Origin: a virus
Taxonomy: Duplodnaviria > Heunggongvirae > Uroviricota > Caudoviricetes
DNA: 12,040 nucleotides
Reading direction: 5' to 3' (one strand)
IMG/VR virus record: IMGVR_UViG_2751185968_000006
The translations under genes and the position numbers were made by a program. Shown piece by piece: positions 189 through 12,040 of the stretch (position 1 is its first letter; the number at the start of each line of letters is the position of its first letter). Below the pieces are notes generated by a model. The model did no database searches. It was not told the origin of the DNA and saw only the letters and a list, made by a program, of their open reading frames with translations.

Positions 189-243
189 GCAAGCACCTTA
201 AAATCACCATCATACACTAAATCAGTAAGTTGGCAGCATTACC
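1..243 (-). mobile_element. IS1-family insertion sequence, partial; continues beyond the left window edge, terminal inverted repeat ends at 243
   Basis: Reverse complement of 232-243 is GGTAATGCTGCC, followed by AACTTACTGATTTAGTGTATGATGGTG, matching the IS1 left terminal repeat as recalled. The insA reading frame follows on the minus strand. Confidence 0.85.
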
Positions 244-2605
244 AATTAACGGAGGGTATCAGTACATTGAAATGAATGGTACCGCAGAATACTCAGTATT
301 AAATGACGGTTATCAAATTGTTCAAATGGGTGGCGCGGCAAACCAGACTACCCTCAATAATGGTGTGCTACAGGTTTATGGCGCAGCGAATGATCCCACG
401 ATTAAAGGCGGGCGCTTAATCGTTGAAAAAGATGGGATTACCGTCCTTGCCGCTATCGAAAAGGGAGGATTACTGGAGGTTAAAGAGGGGGGATTAGCGA
501 TTGCGGTAGATCAGAAAGCAGGCGGTGCTATTAAAGCAAGCACGCGGGTCATGGAGGCATTCGGAATAAACCGTCTCGGTCAGTTCGAAATCAAGAATGG
601 TATTGCTAACAATATGCTGTTGGAAAACGGCGGAAGTTTGCGAGTTGAAGAAAATGACTTCGCTTATAATACTACTGTAGATAGTGGCGGCTTACTGGAG
701 GTTATGGATGGCGGGACTGCAACTGGCGTTGATAAAAAAGCAGGCGGAAAATTAATTGTCTCAACGAATGCGCTGGAAGTGAGTGGTACAAACAGTAAAG
801 GCCAATTTAGTATAAAAGATGGTGTGTCAAAAAATTATGAACTGGATGATGGTTCCGGGCTCATTGTTATGGAGGACACGCAGGCCATTGATACTATCCT
901 TGATGAGCATGCCACTATGCAATCGCTGGGAAAGGATACTGGTACGAAAGTGCAGGCAAATGCGGTATATGATCTCGGTCGATCAGACCAGAATGGAAGT
1001 ATCACGTATTCCTCTAAAGCCATCTCTGAAAATATGGTTATCAACAATGGCCGCGCTAATGTCTGGGCTGGCACAATGGTTAACGTGTCAGTCAGAGGGA
1101 ATGATGGCATTCTTGAGGTCATGAAGCCGCAAATAAATTATGCACCCGCTATGTTGGTGGGTAAGGTAGTGGTTTCTGAGGGCGCTTCTTTTAGAACGCA
1201 TGGTGCCGTGGATACCAGCAAAGCGGACGTTTCGCTCGAAAATAGCGTATGGGCCATCATTGCCGATATCACTACGACGAACCAAAACACCCTCCTCAAC
1301 TTAGCCAACCTTGCGATGTCTGACGCAAATGTGATTATGATGGATGAGCCAGTGACTCGTTCATCAGTGACGGCAAGTGCGGAAAATTTCATTACGTTGA
1401 CCACCAATACCCTGTCGGGAAACGGCAATTTTTATATGCGTACCGATATGGCTAATCATCAGAGCGATCAGCTCAACGTCACCGGTCAGGCAACAGGTGA
1501 TTTCAAAATATTCGTGACGGACACCGGTGCCAGCCCGGCAGCAGGAGATAGCCTTACACTGGTAACAACGGGCGGCGGTGATGCTGCATTTACGTTGGGC
1601 AATGCCGGAGGCGTTGTTGATATCGGTACGTATGAATATACCTTGCTGGATAATGGCAACCATAGCTGGAGTTTGGCAGAGAATCGCGCGCAAATTACCC
1701 CTTCAACCACTGATGTGCTGAATATGGCGGCCGCACAACCGCTGGTATTTGATGCAGAACTGGACACCGTGCGTGAGCGTCTTGGTAGCGTAAAAAGCGT
1801 TAGTTACGATACGGCGATGTGGAGTTCGGCAATTAACACCCGCAACAACGTGACCACTGATGCGGGAGCTGGTTTTGAGCAAACATTGACGGGCCTGACG
1901 CTCGGTATCGATAGCCGTTTCTCCCGTGAAGAAAGCAGTACAATTCGCGGCTTGTTCTTTGGTTACTCTCATTCTGATATTGGTTTTGATCGCGGCGGAA
2001 AAGGTAATATCGATAGCTATACCCTGGGGGCTTATGCCGGTTGGGAGCATCAGAACGGTGCCTATGTTGATGGGGTGGTGAAAGTTGACCGTTTTGCCAA
2101 CACCATCCATGGCAAGATGAGTAATGGGGCAACAGCGTTTGGCGATTACAATAGTAACGGCGCGGGTGCTCATGTTGAGAGCGGGTTCCGTTGGGTTGAC
2201 GGATTGTGGAGTGTTAGACCCTATCTGGCCTTTACCGGCTTTACCACAGATGGTCAGGACTACACGTTATCAAACGGCATGCGCGCTGATGTGGGAAATA
2301 CCCGGATATTACGCGCTGAAGCGGGAACGGCGGTAAGCTATCACATGGACCTGCAAAATGGTACGACGCTGGAACCCTGGCTGAAAGCCGCCGTACGTCA
2401 GGAATACGCCGATTCTAACCATGTGAAAGTTAATGACGATGGCAAATTTAATAATGATGTGGCTGGAACCCCTGGCGTTTATCAGGCTGGGATAAGGTCA
2501 TCGTTTACCCCGACGTTAAGCGGTCATTTGTCAGTCAGCTATGGCAATGGCGCAGGGGTAGAATCGCCGTGGAATACTCAGGCGGGAGTGGTCTGGACGT
2601 TCTGA
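230..2605 (+). CDS. AIDA-I/Ag43-type autotransporter adhesin, 5'-truncated by IS1 (probable pseudogene: no signal peptide, no credible start)
   Basis: 791-aa ORF with repetitive GG-x-L-x-V passenger-type repeats and a C-terminal beta-barrel-like domain ending in aromatic residues (VVWTF). The frame runs into the IS1 terminal repeat; the only start is a TTG at 230 inside IS1, with an in-frame stop at 218-220. Confidence 0.75.
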   Translation: MAALPINGGYQYIEMNGTAEYSVLNDGYQIVQMGGAANQTTLNNGVLQVYGAANDPTIKGGRLIVEKDGITVLAAIEKGGLLEVKEGGLAIAVDQKAGGAIKASTRVMEAFGINRLGQFEIKNGIANNMLLENGGSLRVEENDFAYNTTVDSGGLLEVMDGGTATGVDKKAGGKLIVSTNALEVSGTNSKGQFSIKDGVSKNYELDDGSGLIVMEDTQAIDTILDEHATMQSLGKDTGTKVQANAVYDLGRSDQNGSITYSSKAISENMVINNGRANVWAGTMVNVSVRGNDGILEVMKPQINYAPAMLVGKVVVSEGASFRTHGAVDTSKADVSLENSVWAIIADITTTNQNTLLNLANLAMSDANVIMMDEPVTRSSVTASAENFITLTTNTLSGNGNFYMRTDMANHQSDQLNVTGQATGDFKIFVTDTGASPAAGDSLTLVTTGGGDAAFTLGNAGGVVDIGTYEYTLLDNGNHSWSLAENRAQITPSTTDVLNMAAAQPLVFDAELDTVRERLGSVKSVSYDTAMWSSAINTRNNVTTDAGAGFEQTLTGLTLGIDSRFSREESSTIRGLFFGYSHSDIGFDRGGKGNIDSYTLGAYAGWEHQNGAYVDGVVKVDRFANTIHGKMSNGATAFGDYNSNGAGAHVESGFRWVDGLWSVRPYLAFTGFTTDGQDYTLSNGMRADVGNTRILRAEAGTAVSYHMDLQNGTTLEPWLKAAVRQEYADSNHVKVNDDGKFNNDVAGTPGVYQAGIRSSFTPTLSGHLSVSYGNGAGVESPWNTQAGVVWTF

Positions 2606-3595: not shown

Positions 3596-3780
3596 GGGTC
3601 CTTCCTGGAATTATGGACCCGTTACGGGGCGGCGACCTCGCGCGTTTTCACTATTTATGAAAATTTTTCGGGATCCATGTCCGGTTTCTCTACAAGTTAA
3701 CCATATGAAAAATATAAAAACATGCTTTCCATGAACCGGACATGCGCAAAAAACAGACACTAAAACCGGACATCGAACCA
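3596..3780 (+). other. Lambda-type cos site, copy A (plus orientation): cosQ-like flank, cosN, and cosB-like region with three ACCGGACAT repeats
   Basis: GTTACG at 3621-3626 then GGGCGGCGACCT at 3627-3638 (the 12-nt lambda cohesive-end sequence), then CGCGCGTTTTCACTATTTATGAAAATTTT resembling the lambda left end as recalled. Repeats: CATGTCCGG 3676-3684 (inverted), ACCGGACAT 3735-3743 and 3765-3773. Confidence 0.6.
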
Positions 3781-3841: not shown

Positions 3842-4276
3842 TTACTGTTCTGTATCGGCTGATTGCTCCATGCTGGCACGGCGAACGCTTACGGCATGAC
3901 GCCACCCAGCCAGAAAGCCAGCCATTTTATTTCGTGCCTTGCTCACATCTTCCGGTGAATAGCCGTAAATCTGCAAACCTTCATCAAATCGATGTTCTGT
4001 TTCTTCACTGGAGTACTCGTCACGCTCAGATGAAAGCAGCCTGGCAAACATAATTTTTTCCAGCGCACTGGTTTCTACGTGATATCTGATGGCCTCAAGA
4101 CGGCTTTTACCTGAAGACCAAAGCAATGTATGCCCGATGTGATAACCGCCAGACTTTCCGCGATCCGCATTAAGATACGGCATCCCCTGTTTGGTCCATG
4201 CGCGAATAGTGGTTCTGTTAACCTTGAAATGTTCAGCTATTTCCTGCTGACTTACAAAACAAGCTTTATCAATCAT
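3842..4276 (-). CDS. Terminase small subunit-like protein (lambda Nu1-type N-terminal HTH), 144 aa; candidate packaging-redirecting (Rpp-like) protein
   Basis: N-terminus QQEIAEHFKVNRTTIRAWTKQGMPY resembles lambda Nu1 KKQLADIFGASIRTIQNWQEQGMPV (from memory). It is shorter than Nu1, sits about 90 bp downstream of cos copy B on the same strand, and no large terminase gene is present. Confidence 0.7.
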   Translation of the reverse strand: MIDKACFVSQQEIAEHFKVNRTTIRAWTKQGMPYLNADRGKSGGYHIGHTLLWSSGKSRLEAIRYHVETSALEKIMFARLLSSERDEYSSEETEHRFDEGLQIYGYSPEDVSKARNKMAGFLAGWRHAVSVRRASMEQSADTEQ

Positions 4277-4343: not shown

Positions 4344-4407
4344 TCATAAATAGCGAAAACCCGCGAGGTCGCCGCCCCGTAACGGGCCATAATTCCAGGA
4401 AGGACCC
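4344..4407 (-). other. Lambda-type cos site, copy B (minus orientation), immediately upstream of the TerS-like gene; inverted relative to copy A
   Basis: Minus-strand reading is GGGTCCTTCCTGGAATTATGGCCCGTTACG-GGGCGGCGACCT-CGCGGGTTTTCGCTATTTATGA; cosN lies at 4366-4377. About 64 bp are near-identical to copy A (3596-3660) in inverted orientation. Confidence 0.65.
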
Positions 4408-4437: not shown

Positions 4438-4851
4438 TCAGATGGTTTTCAGTATGCGATCGATGTCGCCGTCATCGCCTGGGTTTCTGCCATCGTATGC
4501 CATGCCAGCTGATACGGTTTGTGGGCTGTGCATGTCCATAAAGTTTTCAAAGGCTGCGGTAAGCTCTGGTGCAACCTTCGGGCGTTCCTGCTCTATGGTC
4601 ATGTTCAGGATGTTTTTAGCCGTATCAACATCGATACAAGGCACGTTTGCCATTGCACGCAACAGCGGCTGATAGTCTTTATGCTCATGAAGCGCCATAA
4701 TCGCATCAGCGCGCGGCTTGTCCTGCTCTTCCAGTTTGTTGAGTTGATATACGGCCTCGTAGGTTGATAAACCTCTGTCAGCCATTGCCCGCGCTTCGGC
4801 TTTAAATTTACTCGCCAGCGGTAGCGCCATGATGCTTTCATTCGTTGCCAT
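4438..4851 (-). CDS. Hypothetical protein (137 aa) between decoration-like gene and cos; possible head or packaging accessory protein
   Basis: ORF with ATG at 4851 and a GGGGGA Shine-Dalgarno sequence. Position matches a capsid/packaging module; no family recognised. Confidence 0.5.
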   Translation of the reverse strand: MATNESIMALPLASKFKAEARAMADRGLSTYEAVYQLNKLEEQDKPRADAIMALHEHKDYQPLLRAMANVPCIDVDTAKNILNMTIEQERPKVAPELTAAFENFMDMHSPQTVSAGMAYDGRNPGDDGDIDRILKTI

Positions 4852-4863
4852 CGTTCCCCCTGC

Positions 4864-5167
4864 TTATCGGGCCAGCGGCTGAACGGATACGCCAGAACCC
4901 GCAAAGGCGGCGCATTTTTTCGCATCGGTGTCGACGCTCTCAGGCCAGTTAACGGCGGCAATATTGAATATCCCCGTCTTGTAACACTGTGCTGATTTCT
5001 GCTTTGACGTGTCCACGAGGTACGAAGTCAGATAAACAGCCTTGCCAGATTCCTGACCATCCCACGGCTTAAACTCGCCATTGTCCACCAGCATCAGCGG
5101 CAAAATGTACCAGTGTCGTTGATACCTGCTGACTGCCTGCAAATAACTCAATATATGGAGTGTCCAT
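4864..5167 (-). CDS. Head decoration protein, lambda gpD-like; possibly frameshifted
   Basis: The C-terminal frame (supplied ORF 4864-5151) reads PLMLVD...WDGQ...YKTGIF...WPESVD...KKCAAFAGSG, paralleling lambda gpD PLMLD...WDG...YKSGTF...WPEA...KKRTAFAG (from memory). The only ATG with a good RBS (GGGGGA) is at 5167 in another frame, which stops at 5069. Confidence 0.55.
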
Positions 5168-5178
5168 ATAATCCCCCG

Positions 5179-6234
5179 TTAACCAATTTTGACGGTAACA
5201 AATTTGCGAATATCTGCCGGAACCGGCTGCGGTGCGCTGTGTGTCTGCACGTACTCAATCGCCGGATCGCCGTCCTCAATCCAGTTTTTCGGGTAGTACA
5301 TGTTTTGCGTTGCGCCCGTTCTTACCGCTTCCTGATCCATAATCGCACCATAGGCCACCAGCCCTTTATTGTTGGTGTTGCCCAGGACCAGCAAATCAGG
5401 CTCAAGGAAATATTTTTCGGTGCCGTCGCTGTCAGTGTATTTGCCGGAATAGACAATAAGAGCAATATCGCCCAGATAGCCTTTAAAGCTCACCACTTCG
5501 CCCAGGTTTTTACAGGCCATTTCTGCGGCGGATTCTGAACCACGGGAAAGATCGTACAGTTCACGGAATTTTTTAAAGCTGCGTAACGTGCGCCATACCT
5601 CAGCGCCCATAATCATGACGTTGGCGGGGCAACCTGCCTGATCTGCGTATAGTTCGATGTCATAGATTGGATCGTAAATATCTTTATCATGCTCGGACCA
5701 TTTTTTGCCGTCGGACTGCTCTATGATGTTTTTTTCCGGTATCTTCCAGTCGATTTCATAGCGTTCTATGCCTTCGCCCTCAATGATGTTTTTTCCGGTC
5801 GTTACCGCATTCACCGCCAGCCATTCCACGCGTGCCTTAATGGCGTTTATCTGGCGGCGCATGTTGCCAGTAATCAGGCGCATACGGCGATAGGTAGGGT
5901 CGTTAAGCTGTGCCGGATCTTCTCCAGCCATGCGCATGATGGTTTTCGTTGGATCGATTTCGTGCTTTGGCTTCATGTAGCCAGGTTTGATTGTGCTGGT
6001 TTCGTACCCTTTATCGCGCTGAACCTGGCTACCCACCATAGGCGAACAAAACGCCGACATGGTGACTTCTTCAATGTCCAGGGTATCCAGCATGATGTTT
6101 TGCGTGCTGAATGTCGCCACGTTCGGGAAAAACAGCGTGGTAAACAGAGGGCTGAATTTAAAATCCGCAATATCCCCGCGATTCAGGTACATAAAAAGCT
6201 GGTTAGTGTTAAGTGCCGTTGCTTTGCCTGCCAT
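5179..6234 (-). CDS. Major capsid protein, lambda gpE family (351 aa)
   Basis: Collinear similarity to lambda gpE as recalled: FKFSPLFTTLFF vs FKFDPLFLRLFF, PGYMKPKHEIDP vs PGYVKPKHEVNP, DPTYRRMRLITGNMR vs DPAYRRRRIIMQNMR, YKGYLGDIALIVYSG vs YKGMYGDVAIVVYSG, YPKNWIEDGDPA vs YPKNWVTTGDPA. Confidence 0.9.
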   Translation of the reverse strand: MAGKATALNTNQLFMYLNRGDIADFKFSPLFTTLFFPNVATFSTQNIMLDTLDIEEVTMSAFCSPMVGSQVQRDKGYETSTIKPGYMKPKHEIDPTKTIMRMAGEDPAQLNDPTYRRMRLITGNMRRQINAIKARVEWLAVNAVTTGKNIIEGEGIERYEIDWKIPEKNIIEQSDGKKWSEHDKDIYDPIYDIELYADQAGCPANVMIMGAEVWRTLRSFKKFRELYDLSRGSESAAEMACKNLGEVVSFKGYLGDIALIVYSGKYTDSDGTEKYFLEPDLLVLGNTNNKGLVAYGAIMDQEAVRTGATQNMYYPKNWIEDGDPAIEYVQTHSAPQPVPADIRKFVTVKIG

Positions 6235-6440
6235 TATTCACCCCCATAATTTTTATGCATCCCAAGCGCCGCAAGTAAATAAGAGCGTACAAGTGAACCT
6301 ATCGACGGCTCCGGCGTCATCAGCGGATCCAGTCCAGCCGCCACGCCAGCCTCATAGTTTTTTTTGTGGCGCTGCTTGAGCACCTCCACGATTTCGGGGC
6401 TTATGTACACCGAAACACCGCCTTTTTTCTCTTCAGCCAT
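6234..6440 (-). CDS. Hypothetical small protein (about 68 aa), translationally coupled to the major capsid gene
   Basis: Likely start at ATG 6440 (MAEEKKGG...) with AAGAGGAA upstream; the supplied ORF extends to 6473 without an RBS. Its stop overlaps the capsid start as TAATG at 6232-6236. Confidence 0.45.
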   Translation of the reverse strand: MAEEKKGGVSVYISPEIVEVLKQRHKKNYEAGVAAGLDPLMTPEPSIGSLVRSYLLAALGMHKNYGGE

Positions 6441-6493
6441 AGTAAGAAATTCCTCTTCGACTAAAAAAATCATAACTGGATGTTTATCCAGTC

Positions 6494-6524
6494 CTGATTA
6501 TAATCAGAATTGCATTTTATGCAA
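6494..6524 (-). promoter_or_regulatory. Putative sigma70-type promoter for the capsid module, with both hexamers inside palindromes
   Basis: Minus strand: -35 TTGCAT (plus 6519-6524), 16-bp spacer, -10 TATAAT (plus 6497-6502). The -10 lies in the palindrome CTGATTATAATCAG (6494-6507) and the -35 in TTGCATTTTATGCAA (6510-6524). Confidence 0.4.
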
Positions 6525-6604
6525 TAATATTGAGTTATGTTGCAAATTATGAAATGATTATCCCGATCACGAACGCCAGTGCATCCAAAAACCTCATATG
6601 CAAA

Positions 6605-6642
6605 AGCCCGATAAGAACCCTCTGACCTTATCGGGCTTTTTT
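6605..6642 (+). terminator. Terminator-like hairpin with T6 tail on the plus strand
   Basis: Stem AGCCCGATAAG (6605-6615) / CTTATCGGGCT (6627-6637), followed by TTTTTT (6637-6642). No obvious plus-strand gene lies upstream. Confidence 0.4.
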
Positions 6643-6648
6643 GGGCGC

Positions 6649-6670
6649 AAAAAAGCCGGATTGCTCCGGC
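6649..6670 (-). terminator. Rho-independent terminator-like hairpin after the 74-aa gene; copy 2 of the repeated hairpin
   Basis: Plus strand AAAAAA-GCCGGA-TTGC-TCCGGC (stem 6655-6660 / 6665-6670); T6 follows on the minus strand. Confidence 0.45.
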
Positions 6671-6690
6671 TATGTGTGCTGTGTGCTGGA

Positions 6691-6915
6691 TCAGTCTCTG
6701 ATCTCTTTCAGAAATTCTATCAATGCATCTATCTGTTCAGGATTTACCGCCAGCATTTCACCGGATAGAGCACATCTCACAAAACCATGCTGATCCTTTT
6801 CAATCAGTGCGCCCGTCTCCAGGAATGCGCGGTAATCATTGATGCTCATCGTCTCCATGTTGTCAGCATGGTATTTATCACGCTGTTTTAATATCTCATC
6901 AAATTTCATCGGCAT
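6691..6915 (-). CDS. Hypothetical protein (74 aa), stand-alone cassette
   Basis: ATG at 6915 with an AGAGGAAA Shine-Dalgarno sequence. Bracketed by terminator hairpins at 7012-7033 (upstream) and 6649-6670 (downstream). Confidence 0.5.
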   Translation of the reverse strand: MPMKFDEILKQRDKYHADNMETMSINDYRAFLETGALIEKDQHGFVRCALSGEMLAVNPEQIDALIEFLKEIRD

Positions 6916-8182: not shown

Positions 8183-8530
8183 TTATAGCGGCGCTACATC
8201 ATCCCCATCGATACTAATAACCCCATCTTTTTCCAGCTTGTACAGCCAGCGCCGGAAGTTTTTCATTTCATACCCCAGCTTTTTCATGTCATCACGTAAC
8301 AGCGGGATCGTGCACTTGTCGCCGTTCTGTGTGCGTGAACGGATGCACCCCCATAGCGCGGTATGGTTTTCCGTCTTGTTCCCTGCCTCCTCGATGCGCT
8401 CCAGTTCAACAGGAGGGCGCGGATCATCCACCACCACCAGCGACGTGATTAATTCACCGTCAGCGTCGGTAAAAAGCTCCACCACGCGTAAGTCATATGC
8501 GGCTTCTTTGAGTTCCTCCGCGTCCTTCAT
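8183..8530 (-). CDS. Replication protein, C-terminal fragment (second piece of a frameshifted primase/helicase-type gene)
   Basis: This frame stays open upstream of the annotated ATG to about 8638 and there encodes DESARGSSAFRASLDAEY, the expected continuation after the HHSGKD motif of RecA-like replication ATPases. Confidence 0.6.
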   Translation of the reverse strand: MKDAEELKEAAYDLRVVELFTDADGELITSLVVVDDPRPPVELERIEEAGNKTENHTALWGCIRSRTQNGDKCTIPLLRDDMKKLGYEMKNFRRWLYKLEKDGVISIDGDDVAPL

Positions 8531-9582
8531 TTTGGTGCATGAGATAACCAGCGCTTTGCTTCCTGCGTCCTCCCTGCGTATCCGGTATTCAGCATCCAGC
8601 GAAGCACGAAATGCACTGGAACCGCGCGCGCTTTCGTCTCATCCTTGCCGGAATGGTGAACCACCAGCACCGTGGCCCCTGTGCGTCGTTTCAGTTCGTC
8701 ACAACCACGGATAAACGCCCCCATATCACGGGAATCATTTTCATCATTCCCACCAAAGCAACGCGCCAGCGTATCCAGAATAATCATGCGTACAGGTTTA
8801 CCCGTTTCCCGCTCCACCTGACGGGCAGCGATAACCATTTCATCAACATCAAGCGGGGCAGCCGGAAAGATGGGGCGGTTTACCAGATACAGATTTTTCA
8901 CCTGCTCATCGTGCACAACCTCCCAGGCTTTTACACGACGCGGAACGCCGATACCGCCTTCACCAACCACATAGAGAACCGCACCATGTGCAACCCTGCG
9001 GCCTCCCCACTGGCGACCAGTGGCAACATGGCACGCCCACGATCCGGCAAGGAATGATTTATAGGACCCGCTAGCCCCGTATATGCTGCATAGCGATACC
9101 GCCGGAATAATCCCCTTAACCACGTAATCCAGTTGCGTGTCGTATCCGGTAGATCCAACGCTCATCGGTAGCGTGGTTTTTCGCTGGTGGTTTTTTTCTT
9201 CCACCGGCTCTTTCCCGCGCACCCGTTCCAGGTATTCGCGCCAGTTCTCCCGCATATGGCTGTGCATCCCTTCGGGGTAATAATTCGCATCAGTTACACC
9301 CGCCGCCGCCAGCTTGTGCGCAATGGCATTAATATTTGATGGCCTGATGTGGCCTGCCTTGTACAGCCGGACACAATAGCGCCCCTCGTCGATGATTCTC
9401 AGGTCTGCCAGTTCATCCAGTTGATCATCAGCCAGCACAACGGGAGGCACATTATCGCCAGCCAGTCGCCCGTCCTGTTCCTGCCACTGTTTTGCATGTG
9501 CCCAGGCATCACTACCCGCAAAAATAATGACTTCGGTCATCTTGTCGTAAGGCTGTTTTTTTAAGTTCGGTGCGCTTTTCAT
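8527..9582 (-). CDS. Primase/helicase-type replication protein (RepA-like P-loop ATPase), N-terminal fragment ending prematurely after a frameshift
   Basis: Walker A GASGSYKS, Walker B MIILDTLARCF, then VLVVHHSGKDE typical of RepA-like helicases. The frame then reads TKARAVPVHF... to a stop at 8527, just downstream of a (CG)4 tract at 8623-8631. Confidence 0.75.
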   Translation of the reverse strand: MKSAPNLKKQPYDKMTEVIIFAGSDAWAHAKQWQEQDGRLAGDNVPPVVLADDQLDELADLRIIDEGRYCVRLYKAGHIRPSNINAIAHKLAAAGVTDANYYPEGMHSHMRENWREYLERVRGKEPVEEKNHQRKTTLPMSVGSTGYDTQLDYVVKGIIPAVSLCSIYGASGSYKSFLAGSWACHVATGRQWGGRRVAHGAVLYVVGEGGIGVPRRVKAWEVVHDEQVKNLYLVNRPIFPAAPLDVDEMVIAARQVERETGKPVRMIILDTLARCFGGNDENDSRDMGAFIRGCDELKRRTGATVLVVHHSGKDETKARAVPVHFVLRWMLNTGYAGRTQEAKRWLSHAPK

Positions 9583-10747: not shown

Positions 10748-10836
10748 AACGGCTCCTAGTTTACGTTGTTGGTTAGAAGCCCTGCGAGTGGTAATGACAC
10801 TTGCGGGGCTTTGCTTTTTTAAGTGCTCTTGTGTTA

Positions 10837-10883
10837 AGGTGGCCACCTAACAATGGAAAGGCTAATTCAATAGGTGACCACTT
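10837..10883. promoter_or_regulatory. Divergent control region with two related operator-like sites and a consensus -35 hexamer
   Basis: Perfect 12-bp palindrome AGGTGGCCACCT (10837-10848) and a related half-palindromic site AGGTGACCACTT (10872-10883), about 35 bp apart. TTGACA reads on the minus strand at 10888-10883. Confidence 0.35.
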
Positions 10884-10941
10884 GTCAATAATCAAACGCG
10901 ATAAAAGCCCTAAAGGGGACGGGCAATCCCCACAATTCAGA

Positions 10942-11073
10942 ATGCGAATTTCTCCAGAGCTAAAAGAGCAATTCGACAAAGAAGCACAGAGCGACGGCAT
11001 AAGCCTAGCCAACTGGCTTAAAGAGTTGGGGCGCACTGAACTAAAGCGGCGCGGCATAGAACCCAAAGGATAA
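10942..11073 (+). CDS. Small ribbon-helix-helix (Arc/CopG-like) DNA-binding protein, 43 aa; candidate repressor
   Basis: MRISPELKEQFDKEAQSDGISLANWLKELGRTELKRRG fits the RHH pattern of a short N-terminal beta-strand followed by two helices. It is divergent from the main operon and next to the operator-like palindromes; its RBS is weak. Confidence 0.45.
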   Translation: MRISPELKEQFDKEAQSDGISLANWLKELGRTELKRRGIEPKG

Positions 11074-11659: not shown

Positions 11660-11764
11660 CGTGATTTACCTTGTGAATCCGGTGTATTCCGGTGACAAAT
11701 ACGGTAAATCATCGGATATGGGTAAAAACAGTTCCCACCGTTTTTAAACGGTATACACCGTTTT

Positions 11765-12040
11765 GGTAATGACTCCAACTTACTGATAGTGTTTTATGTT
11801 CAGATAATGCCCGATGACCTTGTCATGCAGCTCCACCGATTTTGAGAACGACAGTGACTTCCGTCCCAGCCTTGCCAGATGTTGTCTCAGATTCAGATTA
11901 TGTCGCTCAATGCGCTGAGTGTAACGCTTGCTGATAACGTGCAGCTTTCCCTTCAGGCGTGATTCATACAGCGGCCAGCCATCCGTCATCCATACCACGA
12001 CCTCAAAGGCCGACAGCAGGCTCAGAAGACGCTCCAGTGT
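11765..12040 (-). mobile_element. IS1-family insertion sequence, partial; right terminal repeat at 11765, continues beyond the right window edge
   Basis: GGTAATGACTCCAACTTACTGATAGTGTTTTATGTTCAGATAATGCCCGATGAC from 11765 matches the IS1 right terminal repeat as recalled. The insB frame follows on the minus strand. Confidence 0.9.
11780..12040 (-). CDS. insB: IS1 InsB transposase, C-terminal part (gene runs off the window edge)
   Basis: Minus-strand translation [86 protein letters not shown] matches the InsB C-terminus as recalled; it is in frame to the window edge. Confidence 0.85.

Follow-up and report, generated by a model that had tools for sequence, protein, structure and literature searches.

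The window analysed here, the whole 12,040-nt stretch of the viral record IMGVR_UViG_2751185968_000006, is, judged by its sequence, a phage-inducible chromosomal island (PICI) of the EcCICFT073 type, i.e., a phage satellite of Escherichia coli, and the element in question is the minus-strand promoter at 6494-6524, ahead of the capsid genes. It is probably the sigma-70 promoter of the operon for the capsid proteins and Rpp (redirecting phage packaging), repressed by host LexA at a palindrome over the transcription start, with two further palindromes over the -35 and -10 hexamers serving as the operator of a second dimeric protein. The three inverted repeats (IR1, IR2, and IR3) and the promoter elements are located as follows.

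6519-6524, minus strand: -35 hexamer TTGCAT, 3 of 6 positions matching TTGACA.
6497-6502, minus strand: -10 hexamer TATAAT, 6 of 6 positions matching.
6509-6525, both strands: IR1, ATTGCAT-AAA-ATGCAAT, centred near -27, over the -35 and half of the spacer.
6494-6507, both strands: IR2, CTGATTATAATCAG, centred near -10.5.
6489-6492, minus strand: predicted transcription start, 5-8 nt past the -10 according to sigma-70 geometry.
6474-6493, both strands: candidate LexA box GACTGGATAAACATCCAGTT, CTG-N10-CAG, at ~-3 to +17 of the promoter.

The promoter core agrees with the initial annotation in position, with TTGCAT at 6524-6519, a spacer of 16 nt (6518-6503), and TATAAT at 6502-6497. Both palindromes it named can also be read off the sequence exactly: the -10 lies inside the perfect 14-bp palindrome CTGATTATAATCAG (6494-6507), and the -35 inside the perfect palindrome TTGCATTTTATGCAA (6510-6524), which lengthens to a 17-bp inverted repeat, ATTGCAT-N3-ATGCAAT, at 6509-6525. 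The promoter was correctly placed between a terminator and the capsid genes, having hairpins upstream and a 68-aa open reading frame (ORF) followed by the capsid gene downstream. Its description as near-consensus, however, fits only the -10, since the -35 shares nothing but TTG with TTGACA; for the same reason a consensus promoter scan does not report this promoter. The palindromic nature of IR2 means that TATAAT can be read on the plus strand as well (6499-6504). According to this arrangement, a sigma-70 promoter would fire near position 6490.

Abutting IR2 is IR3, a perfect repeat ACTGGAT-N4-ATCCAGT at 6475-6492 that the initial annotation had not flagged. Together with IR1 and IR2, it brings the number of distinct inverted repeats with arms of 7 bp or longer inside 51 bp to three. 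No shuffled sequence reached this number when the window was dinucleotide-shuffled 1000 times and the AT-rich intergenic region was shuffled 5000 times. The same bases can alternatively be described as four alternating units of ~15 bp (ATGCAAT-NN-TGATTA and relatives), a pattern that may be partly coincidence because the "heads" in IR3 are LexA half-sites. No further copy of the IR1- or IR2-type patterns is present anywhere in the window.

IR3 looks like a binding site for host LexA, the repressor of the SOS response. Scores were computed with a symmetrised 20-mer matrix derived from the 18 SOS boxes that Table 4 of PMC3009722 lists for E. coli. On this matrix positions 6474-6493 reach 20.3 bits and the runner-up site of the window 6.7 bits, and known SOS boxes in a leave-one-out comparison range from 6.6 to 27.6 bits (18.4, 19.1, and 20.4 for ruvA, lexA, and recA, respectively). 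A score of 20.3 bits was attained in 1 of 200 shuffles of the 12-kb window. The value depends little on the training set, being 18.9-20.1 bits when CTGG-type boxes are left out and 18.9 bits without ruvA, cho, uvrB, and dinG. The interval from ~-3 to +17 is the usual location of SOS operators. The CTG-N10-CAG unit itself is CTGGATAAACATCCAG at 6476-6491, and its CTG and CAG are invariant in the aligned variants.

Conservation of the box was assessed on 56 distinct variants of the region gathered from IMG/VR, metagenomes, and genomes, with remoter relatives found via capsid homologues. A candidate LexA box is located at the same offset in 55 of these 56 variants and in both Salmonella loci, scoring 16.1-22.1 bits. 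The common variant in which ATCCAGT becomes ATACAGT breaks the hairpin and at the same time lifts the LexA score to 21.6 bits. In Lelliottia (L117), where the small ORF is only 31% identical to that of the window, a different canonical box, CACTGTTTTTTCATACAGTT, with 20.9 bits occupies the same place between the promoter region and the ribosome-binding site. These data suggest that LexA binds IR3 and would thereby repress the promoter.

A second family of LexA-like boxes is found in the int-alpA intergenic region (L001 14213-14232, L002 13787-13806, L166 3384-3403, and many IMG/VR loci). Some islands have it in canonical form (AACTGTACAAAAAACCAGTA, 19.4 bits); in CFT073, TW14359, and EDL933 it is degenerate (CTG...CAC), and the degenerate form fits the published observation that alpA of CFT073 is not SOS-induced. 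As for expression data, the capsid transcript of the EDL933 island CP-933C (-1.8-fold after ciprofloxacin; RPKM of 0-4 in another data set) was considered as counter-evidence to SOS control and set aside. These values are not applicable because CP-933C, a capsid-forming island, has an HK97-type module, and its intergenic region differs from that of the window.

The whole promoter block is widespread and strongly conserved. Of 5426 complete E. coli genomes, 592 have a match to region 6380-6700, CFT073 at its published island among them, and 598 have a match to the 116-bp core. In E. coli genomes the block always stands between the 74-aa/PerC genes and the small ORF with the capsid gene. Between E. 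coli and Salmonella a stretch of ~105 bp, from AATCATTTCATAATTTGCAAC through the T-run, is nearly invariant, whereas identity in the small protein next to it is only ~55% and the flank on the upstream side defies alignment. The TTGC-16 nt-TATAAT spacing shows no indel in any of the 56 variants, TATAAT is kept in 53 of them, and in the -35 hexamer TTGC is invariant while positions 5-6 are AT, AC, GC, TC, or GA. Bases having no sigma-70 role are as conserved as the hexamers, namely AAAATGCAA in the spacer, TGAT and CA flanking the -10, and CTGGAT/ATCCAG after it. Among remoter relatives, a diverged E. coli island, and probably Edwardsiella as well, preserves the -35/16-nt/-10 geometry, the -10 there being TAAAAT. 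The diverged E. coli type (L116 and six metagenomic relatives) retains ATTGCAAAAAATGCAAT and ATGATT-AA-AATCAT despite its TAAAAT -10, and Edwardsiella L115 has two tandem IR1-type copies, TTGCAY-N3-ATGCAATGATGA, 32 bp apart. The composite ATGCAAYNNTGATTA occurs exactly once per island. Contig scans of species-representative genomes gave nothing because those genomes do not have the island.

Regarding the individual dyads, the conserved core of IR1 is ATTGC-N7-GCAAT, and the perfect palindrome over the -35 is a minority state because its innermost pair is unpaired in 26 of the 36 distinct 58-nt variants used for the analysis of pairing and covariation. IR2 in most relatives is ATGATTATAATCAT, likewise a perfect palindrome; its outer pair is A..T in 28, C..G in 13, and mixed in 15 of the 56 variants (17, 8, and 11 of the 36, respectively). 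The three dyads are 88%, 95%, and 98% "paired" across the 36 variants, nearly all through invariance, with compensatory change confined to the outermost pairs and sequence identity conserved otherwise. Since they are conserved by identity and not by covariation, IR1 and IR2 suit a protein site better than a hairpin, and we infer that they are conserved, sequence-specific sites of a second dimeric binder.

The comparison with EDL933 indicates to which module the block belongs. CP-933C (L165 37800-38140) shares the 74-aa gene and the first terminator hairpin with the window and diverges directly downstream, continuing with an unrelated intergenic region and the HK97-type capsid module, which puts the module boundary exactly at the first terminator. 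Since EDL933, with its other capsid module, lacks the block, the block belongs to the gpE-type capsid module, and on these alignments promoter block and capsid module appear to travel as one conserved unit.

The promoter is flanked by the following elements.

6654-6671, minus strand: terminator-like hairpin AGCCGGAGCAATCCGGCT with a T-run after it, closing the upstream replication/PerC/74-aa operon.
6602-6640, both strands: second hairpin, with perfect 14-bp arms AAAAGCCCGATAAG and CTTATCGGGCTTTT.
6539-6562, minus strand: conserved upstream block AATCATTTCATAATTTGCAAC, at ~-72 to -49.
6441-6473, minus strand: 5' leader, with a T-run at 6463-6470 and the ribosome-binding site GAAGAGGAA at 6449-6457.

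The second hairpin is bordered by an A-run and, on the opposite side, by a T-run, and could therefore terminate in both directions; the T-run is longer on the plus strand, and the right arm is conserved in the E. coli variants. In the upstream block, TTTCATAATTT and the following CAA are invariant in Salmonella and in 42 variants retrieved with a pattern that excluded these bases, and the base between them is G in E. coli and A in Salmonella. This block could be an activator site, an UP-like element, or part of a divergent RNA. In the leader, the motif TTTTTAGTCAAAGAGGAAT is conserved out to Edwardsiella. In a predicted minus-strand hairpin at 6430-6467 the T-run is paired with codons 3-5, with the ribosome-binding site and AUG lying inside (folding of 6430-6492 gives -17.8 kcal/mol, z = -3.7), and this predicted structure could give translational control of the small ORF.

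The search for a protein that would bind IR1 and IR2 covered both island proteins and host factors. The initial annotation had read the palindromes as sites of a dimeric regulator, possibly the AlpA-like, ribbon-helix-helix, or PerC-like protein of the island. The general part of this reading is consistent with the data, as sites suited to dimeric regulators cover the promoter and the two named palindromes are conserved far beyond what a promoter needs, but the island proteins put forward for them gain no support. The alpA promoter region has no motif in common with the capsid promoter, and no k-mer is enriched between the capsid promoter and either the alpA promoter region or the divergent regulatory region. 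PerC is absent from several islands that keep the block, and the 68-aa product of the first gene could not be shown to be a ribbon-helix-helix protein. The latter has no match in Pfam, NCBIfam, PDB sequences, or Foldseek, and an hhalign comparison with a set of ribbon-helix-helix sequences entered by hand reached a probability of 10.8%, in the wrong register; a profile search of 1.84 billion proteins likewise gave no indication of a DNA-binding fold. The AlphaFold model of its monomer, an extended N-terminus followed by two helices, has a topology compatible with ribbon-helix-helix. Of all genes, only the small ORF invariably accompanies the block; no homologue of it encoded by phages was found. 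Host-factor look-alikes were compared by eye with consensus sequences, and Fur, DnaA, IHF, NsrR, lambda CII (TTGC-N6-TTGC), the P1 C1 operator, and the marbox were rejected for wrong spacing or key bases. A cos site or Rpp operator was likewise rejected, as the cosN copies sit elsewhere (3627-3638 and 4366-4377); a second ATGCA...TGATTA match near rpp exists in only 12 of 83 loci. The initial annotation had also supposed that the packaging module is held off until a helper or island factor acts. Since host LexA is the only regulator that can be named, the SOS response is the most likely trigger, and a helper or island factor is not necessarily involved.

The mechanism we favour would then operate as follows. 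Two terminators would insulate the capsid/Rpp promoter from the upstream replication/PerC operon, and three adjacent dyads would cover its core, IR1 on the -35 and spacer, IR2 on the -10, and IR3 on the start. In an undamaged cell a LexA dimer at ~-3 to +17 would block initiation; DNA damage, which is also the inducer of helper prophages, would lead to cleavage of LexA and opening of the operon. Such LexA logic would equal that already shown for SaPI operon I, the staphylococcal satellite packaging operon (Ubeda 2007, cited in PMC6739421 and PMC6092414). IR1 and IR2 would be the older elements, persisting in relatives without a LexA box (L116-type and Edwardsiella), and most likely serve as operator for a second dimeric protein, which would bind the DNA there and occlude both hexamers. 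The stronger version, a double lock in which host LexA at the start is combined with a dedicated dimeric repressor on IR1/IR2 encoded by the island or the helper, is put forward only tentatively and is rather improbable.

Several observations weigh against LexA repression combined with a second operator. The -35 of the capsid promoter matches only 3 of 6 consensus positions. The symmetry of IR2 comes partly for free, ATTATAAT being a palindrome by itself, and some compensatory changes (TA to CC in L010/L047) could result from quasi-palindrome template switching. No protein family or host-factor motif matches IR1/IR2 convincingly. Both half-sites of the box are CTGG rather than CTGT, as in the ruvA box; among SOS boxes that of ruvA is comparatively weak, and repression here may accordingly be modest. 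The L116-type, Edwardsiella, and L118 relatives have no LexA-like site (at most 3 bits), and LexA control is for this reason not universal in the family. Finally, SOS alone cannot run the whole cycle of the island, because expression of alpA in EcCICFT073 depends on the helper phage and not on SOS (PMC6092414).

Among the alternatives, an ordinary and essentially constitutive promoter would need no regulator, the palindromes being by-products of the near-self-complementary TATAAT, AT-rich DNA, and template switching. Such an origin would account for the self-palindromic ATTATAAT, the frequency of imperfect intermediate outer pairs in IR2 (15/56), the minority status of the perfect IR1, and the two-base change in L010/L047, which perfects the long repeat and resembles a templated mutation. 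Shuffles, however, never reached three repeats in 51 bp, the non-sigma-70 positions (AAAATGCAA, TGAT/CA, and CTGGAT/ATCCAG) are near-invariant across genera where neighbouring coding DNA has diverged, and a LexA-type box recurs with different sequence in Lelliottia, which makes a promoter of this kind unlikely. About equally improbable is a role of IR3 in RNA, either as a 5'-terminal mRNA-stabilising hairpin or, with the T-run, as an early terminator or attenuator overcome by a Q-like antiterminator of the helper or the island. A terminator scan does list 6493-6474 with the T-run, the leader folds well (z = -3.7 and -4.4), and CFT073-type islands extend the repeat to a perfect 14-4-14 with Ts directly after it. 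The organisation also resembles lambda pR'/Q and P. aeruginosa PalpB/AlpA, with a conserved element between -35 and -10, the binding position of Q and of P. aeruginosa AlpA (PMC7969949), followed by a hairpin and T-run before the first gene. Unlike these systems, the capsid promoter lacks a conserved sigma-dependent pause element and a strong terminator, the island encodes no homologous antiterminator, and the sequences are not similar. The stem of IR3 is short and shows no covariation, its common variant loses a G-C pair yet improves the LexA match, most of the long 14-bp form precedes the predicted start, and the hairpin is absent from the L116-type and Edwardsiella relatives; the -10-like TATGAT of the leader (6474-6469) varies among TCCTGAT, TTGTGAT, and TATAAT. 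A mimic of lambdoid late promoters was rejected, as no INPHARED phage has the block and lambda pR' is unrelated to it in sequence. The same applies to antitermination by AlpA: P. aeruginosa AlpA, which attaches between -35 and -10 and brings about read-through of the downstream terminator, is a Q21-like protein of ~150 aa (PMC9371919), and the AlpA of the island is a 68-aa winged-helix protein with a sub-threshold match to Pfam Phage_AlpA and no match to P. aeruginosa AlpA in a PDB sequence search. The model fails because the two proteins are unrelated and their common name is a coincidence. The hairpin is better explained as a LexA box than as part of an antitermination system.

The remaining alternatives concern IR1 and IR2. 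They may be the operator of the first product of the operon, the 68-aa protein acting as a dimeric autorepressor in the ribbon-helix-helix manner, possibly alongside LexA. The constant linkage of the small ORF, the single occurrence of the motif per island at the capsid promoter only, the pattern GGVSVYISPEIV...SIGSLVRSYLLAAL, which by eye resembles strand-helix-helix, and the modelled extended N-terminus with two helices all agree with autorepression. We nevertheless regard it as doubtful, given the empty database searches and the low, misregistered hhalign result, a tiny protein family linked to nothing else, a product that is not basic, and the TTGCAT-type repeats kept in L118 without the small ORF. 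Still less probable is a CytR-type host nucleoside regulator on the TTGCA/TGCAA octamers (TTTGCAAC-N13-ATTGCATA and ATTGCATA-N1-AATGCAAT). The published half-sites are indeed TGCAA/TTGCA, with the octamer GTTGCATT and flexible spacing that includes 10-13 bp and 1 bp (PMC3454398), and a Salmonella variant contains GTTGCATT exactly; CytR, however, acts with flanking CRP sites, none of which was seen in acceptable form by eye, the close pair is everted, opposite to the optimum in PMC3454398, and the motif is low in information, so that this is a resemblance rather than a scored match. Finally, the palindromic -10 might serve both strands, with the plus-strand TATAAT (6499-6504) firing a divergent, SOS-controlled small RNA of ~135 nt that ends at 6602-6640. 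In that case the conserved upstream block would belong to the RNA, and the -35 region of the plus-strand promoter would be overlapped by the LexA box; such a transcript could coexist with LexA control of the capsid operon. Apart from the TATAAT readable in both directions, it is suggested by the second hairpin, which on the plus strand, at 6602-6646, has its longer T-run and is redundant for minus-strand termination, by a terminator-like hairpin upstream on the opposite strand in Salmonella L007 as well, and by the folding of 6505-6650 on the plus strand (z = -2.7). On the other side, possible -35 hexamers on the plus strand match poorly (2-3 of 6), conservation is lacking in the middle of the putative RNA, and a known RNA family was rejected after an Rfam search found no match, which leaves a divergent RNA with only a slim chance.

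The genes behind the promoter correspond to the packaging and interference part of the island.

6234-6440, minus strand: 68-aa ORF (phrog_3255), the first gene of the operon, with a stop overlapping the start of the capsid gene.
5179-6234, minus strand: lambda gpE-like major capsid gene (Pfam Phage_cap_E, E = 3e-51).
4864-5190, minus strand: lambda gpD-like head decoration gene (Pfam HDPD), frameshifted in the window.
4438-4851, minus strand: 137-aa protein resembling the C-terminal (scaffold) part of head maturation proteases (phrog_1999, phrog_53).
4366-4377, minus strand: cosN, GGGCGGCGACCT, just upstream of rpp.
3842-4276, minus strand: Rpp, a TerS-like winged helix-turn-helix protein.
3627-3638, plus strand: second copy of cosN, GGGCGGCGACCT.

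On the replication side the minus-strand order is alpA, DUF4222, RepA-like helicase, SSB, PerC-family, and the 74-aa ORF, followed by the two terminators, and after the promoter it is the 68-aa ORF, the E-like capsid gene, the D-like gene, the 137-aa scaffold-like gene, cosN, rpp, the second cosN, and a 93-aa ORF. The DUF4222 gene is the RgdR regulator described in PMC3378721. With packaging/interference genes downstream, its own promoter after the replication module, and terminators upstream, the operon has the layout of a satellite packaging operon. Position 6440 is taken as the true start of the first gene because the upstream ATG at 6473 is not conserved (it is lost in L010/L047). In E. 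coli, Salmonella, Edwardsiella, and Lelliottia alike, the small ORF always immediately precedes the capsid gene, and its family counts only 16 members among 1.84 billion representatives in a profile search. Rpp contains the residues R21, T22, R25, and K29, matching the published RppC model (PMC6739421). The two cosN sites are exact copies of lambda/phi80 cosN in opposite orientations that bracket rpp, in agreement with the two cos sites of EcCICFT073 (PMC6092414).

The island in the window is decaying, yet its promoter block is intact. The head decoration gene, frameshifted here, is intact (111 aa) in TW14359, and the RepA-like helicase gene (8183-9582, minus strand), which has lost 1 nt compared with the 1401-nt gene that is intact in TW14359, is split into ORFs of 351 and 115 aa and is a pseudogene here. 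The integrase gene and the int-alpA regulatory region of CFT073/TW14359 are missing, and a fragment of an IS1-like transposase (11780-11998, minus strand) lies ~120 bp upstream of alpA. At the cos end the island is flanked by a 791-aa ORF (230-2605, plus strand) that reads like an AIDA/Ag43-type autotransporter; phoQ occupies this position in CFT073 and TW14359, and in L116 an AIDA-type gene (Pfam AIDA, Pertactin, and Autotransporter) adjoins a related island. Divergent from the early operon, a 90-aa ORF (10801-11073, plus strand), a candidate gene of the island, matches phrog_228 (Arc-like repressor) weakly and Pfam HicB weakly and below the curated cut-off; it is a candidate regulator, with no IR1- or IR2-like site nearby. 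The region upstream of alpA (11737-11763, minus strand) contains overlapping AAACGGT/ACCGTTT palindromes (AAACGGTGTATACCGTTTAAAAACGGT), which are unrelated to the dyads of the capsid promoter and are possible sites of AlpA autoregulation.

Compared with known systems, the closest parallel is SaPI operon I, also a satellite packaging/interference operon with its own promoter downstream of the replication module and a host LexA box. Because of this box, both the SaPI-type operon and the present one would open under SOS, which also induces helper prophages. The two differ in host phylum, in the form of the box (here the E. coli form CTG-N10-CAG), and in gene content, with TerS/Cpm there and a lambda E/D-like capsid pair plus Rpp here; in addition, the present promoter has two further conserved dyads over the -35 and -10, and its LexA control is predicted. 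A LexA-controlled satellite packaging operon is a known kind, and this E. coli promoter would be a new case of it; no report linking LexA to the packaging operon of a Gram-negative PICI was found among the searchable literature. Among chromosomal boxes, the ruvAB SOS box CGCTGGATATCTATCCAGCA has identical half-sites (CTGGAT/ATCCAG) and spacing (PMC3009722, Table 4), and as in many SOS genes the box here is next to the -10 and over the start site. It differs from ruvAB in the 4-bp centre and the flanks, and in being part of a mobile element and combined with other operators. As for the published EcCICFT073 (Fillol-Salom et al. 2018, 2019), the island family, the gene order, rpp in the operon, and the two flanking cos sites are the same. 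Regulation in that work relies on the AlpA activator, for which the helper phage is the inducer, and it covers the alpA and int promoters and the function of Rpp, but not the capsid promoter, its dyads, or the LexA box. No description of the capsid promoter was found in the literature, the searchable papers treating the alpA and int promoters.

Rpp blocks the packaging of the helper phage and redirects it to the island (PMC6739421). Since the operon encodes Rpp, the firing time of this promoter decides how the satellite interferes with its helper. The published work on E. coli PICIs describes induction via the AlpA activator, with no repressor known. A predicted LexA box and two more candidate operators on the packaging promoter provide a concrete and cheaply testable model of this timing, for an island present in ~11% of complete E. 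coli genomes. It may also be useful to engineers of EcCICFT073 delivery vehicles, who replace genes directly behind the capsid promoter. If LexA control is true, the rule that operon I of SaPIs is SOS-controlled would extend to Gram-negative satellites as a case of convergent regulation, and if the double lock is true, it would be the first repressor described for Gram-negative PICIs, which are currently thought to be run by the AlpA activator only.

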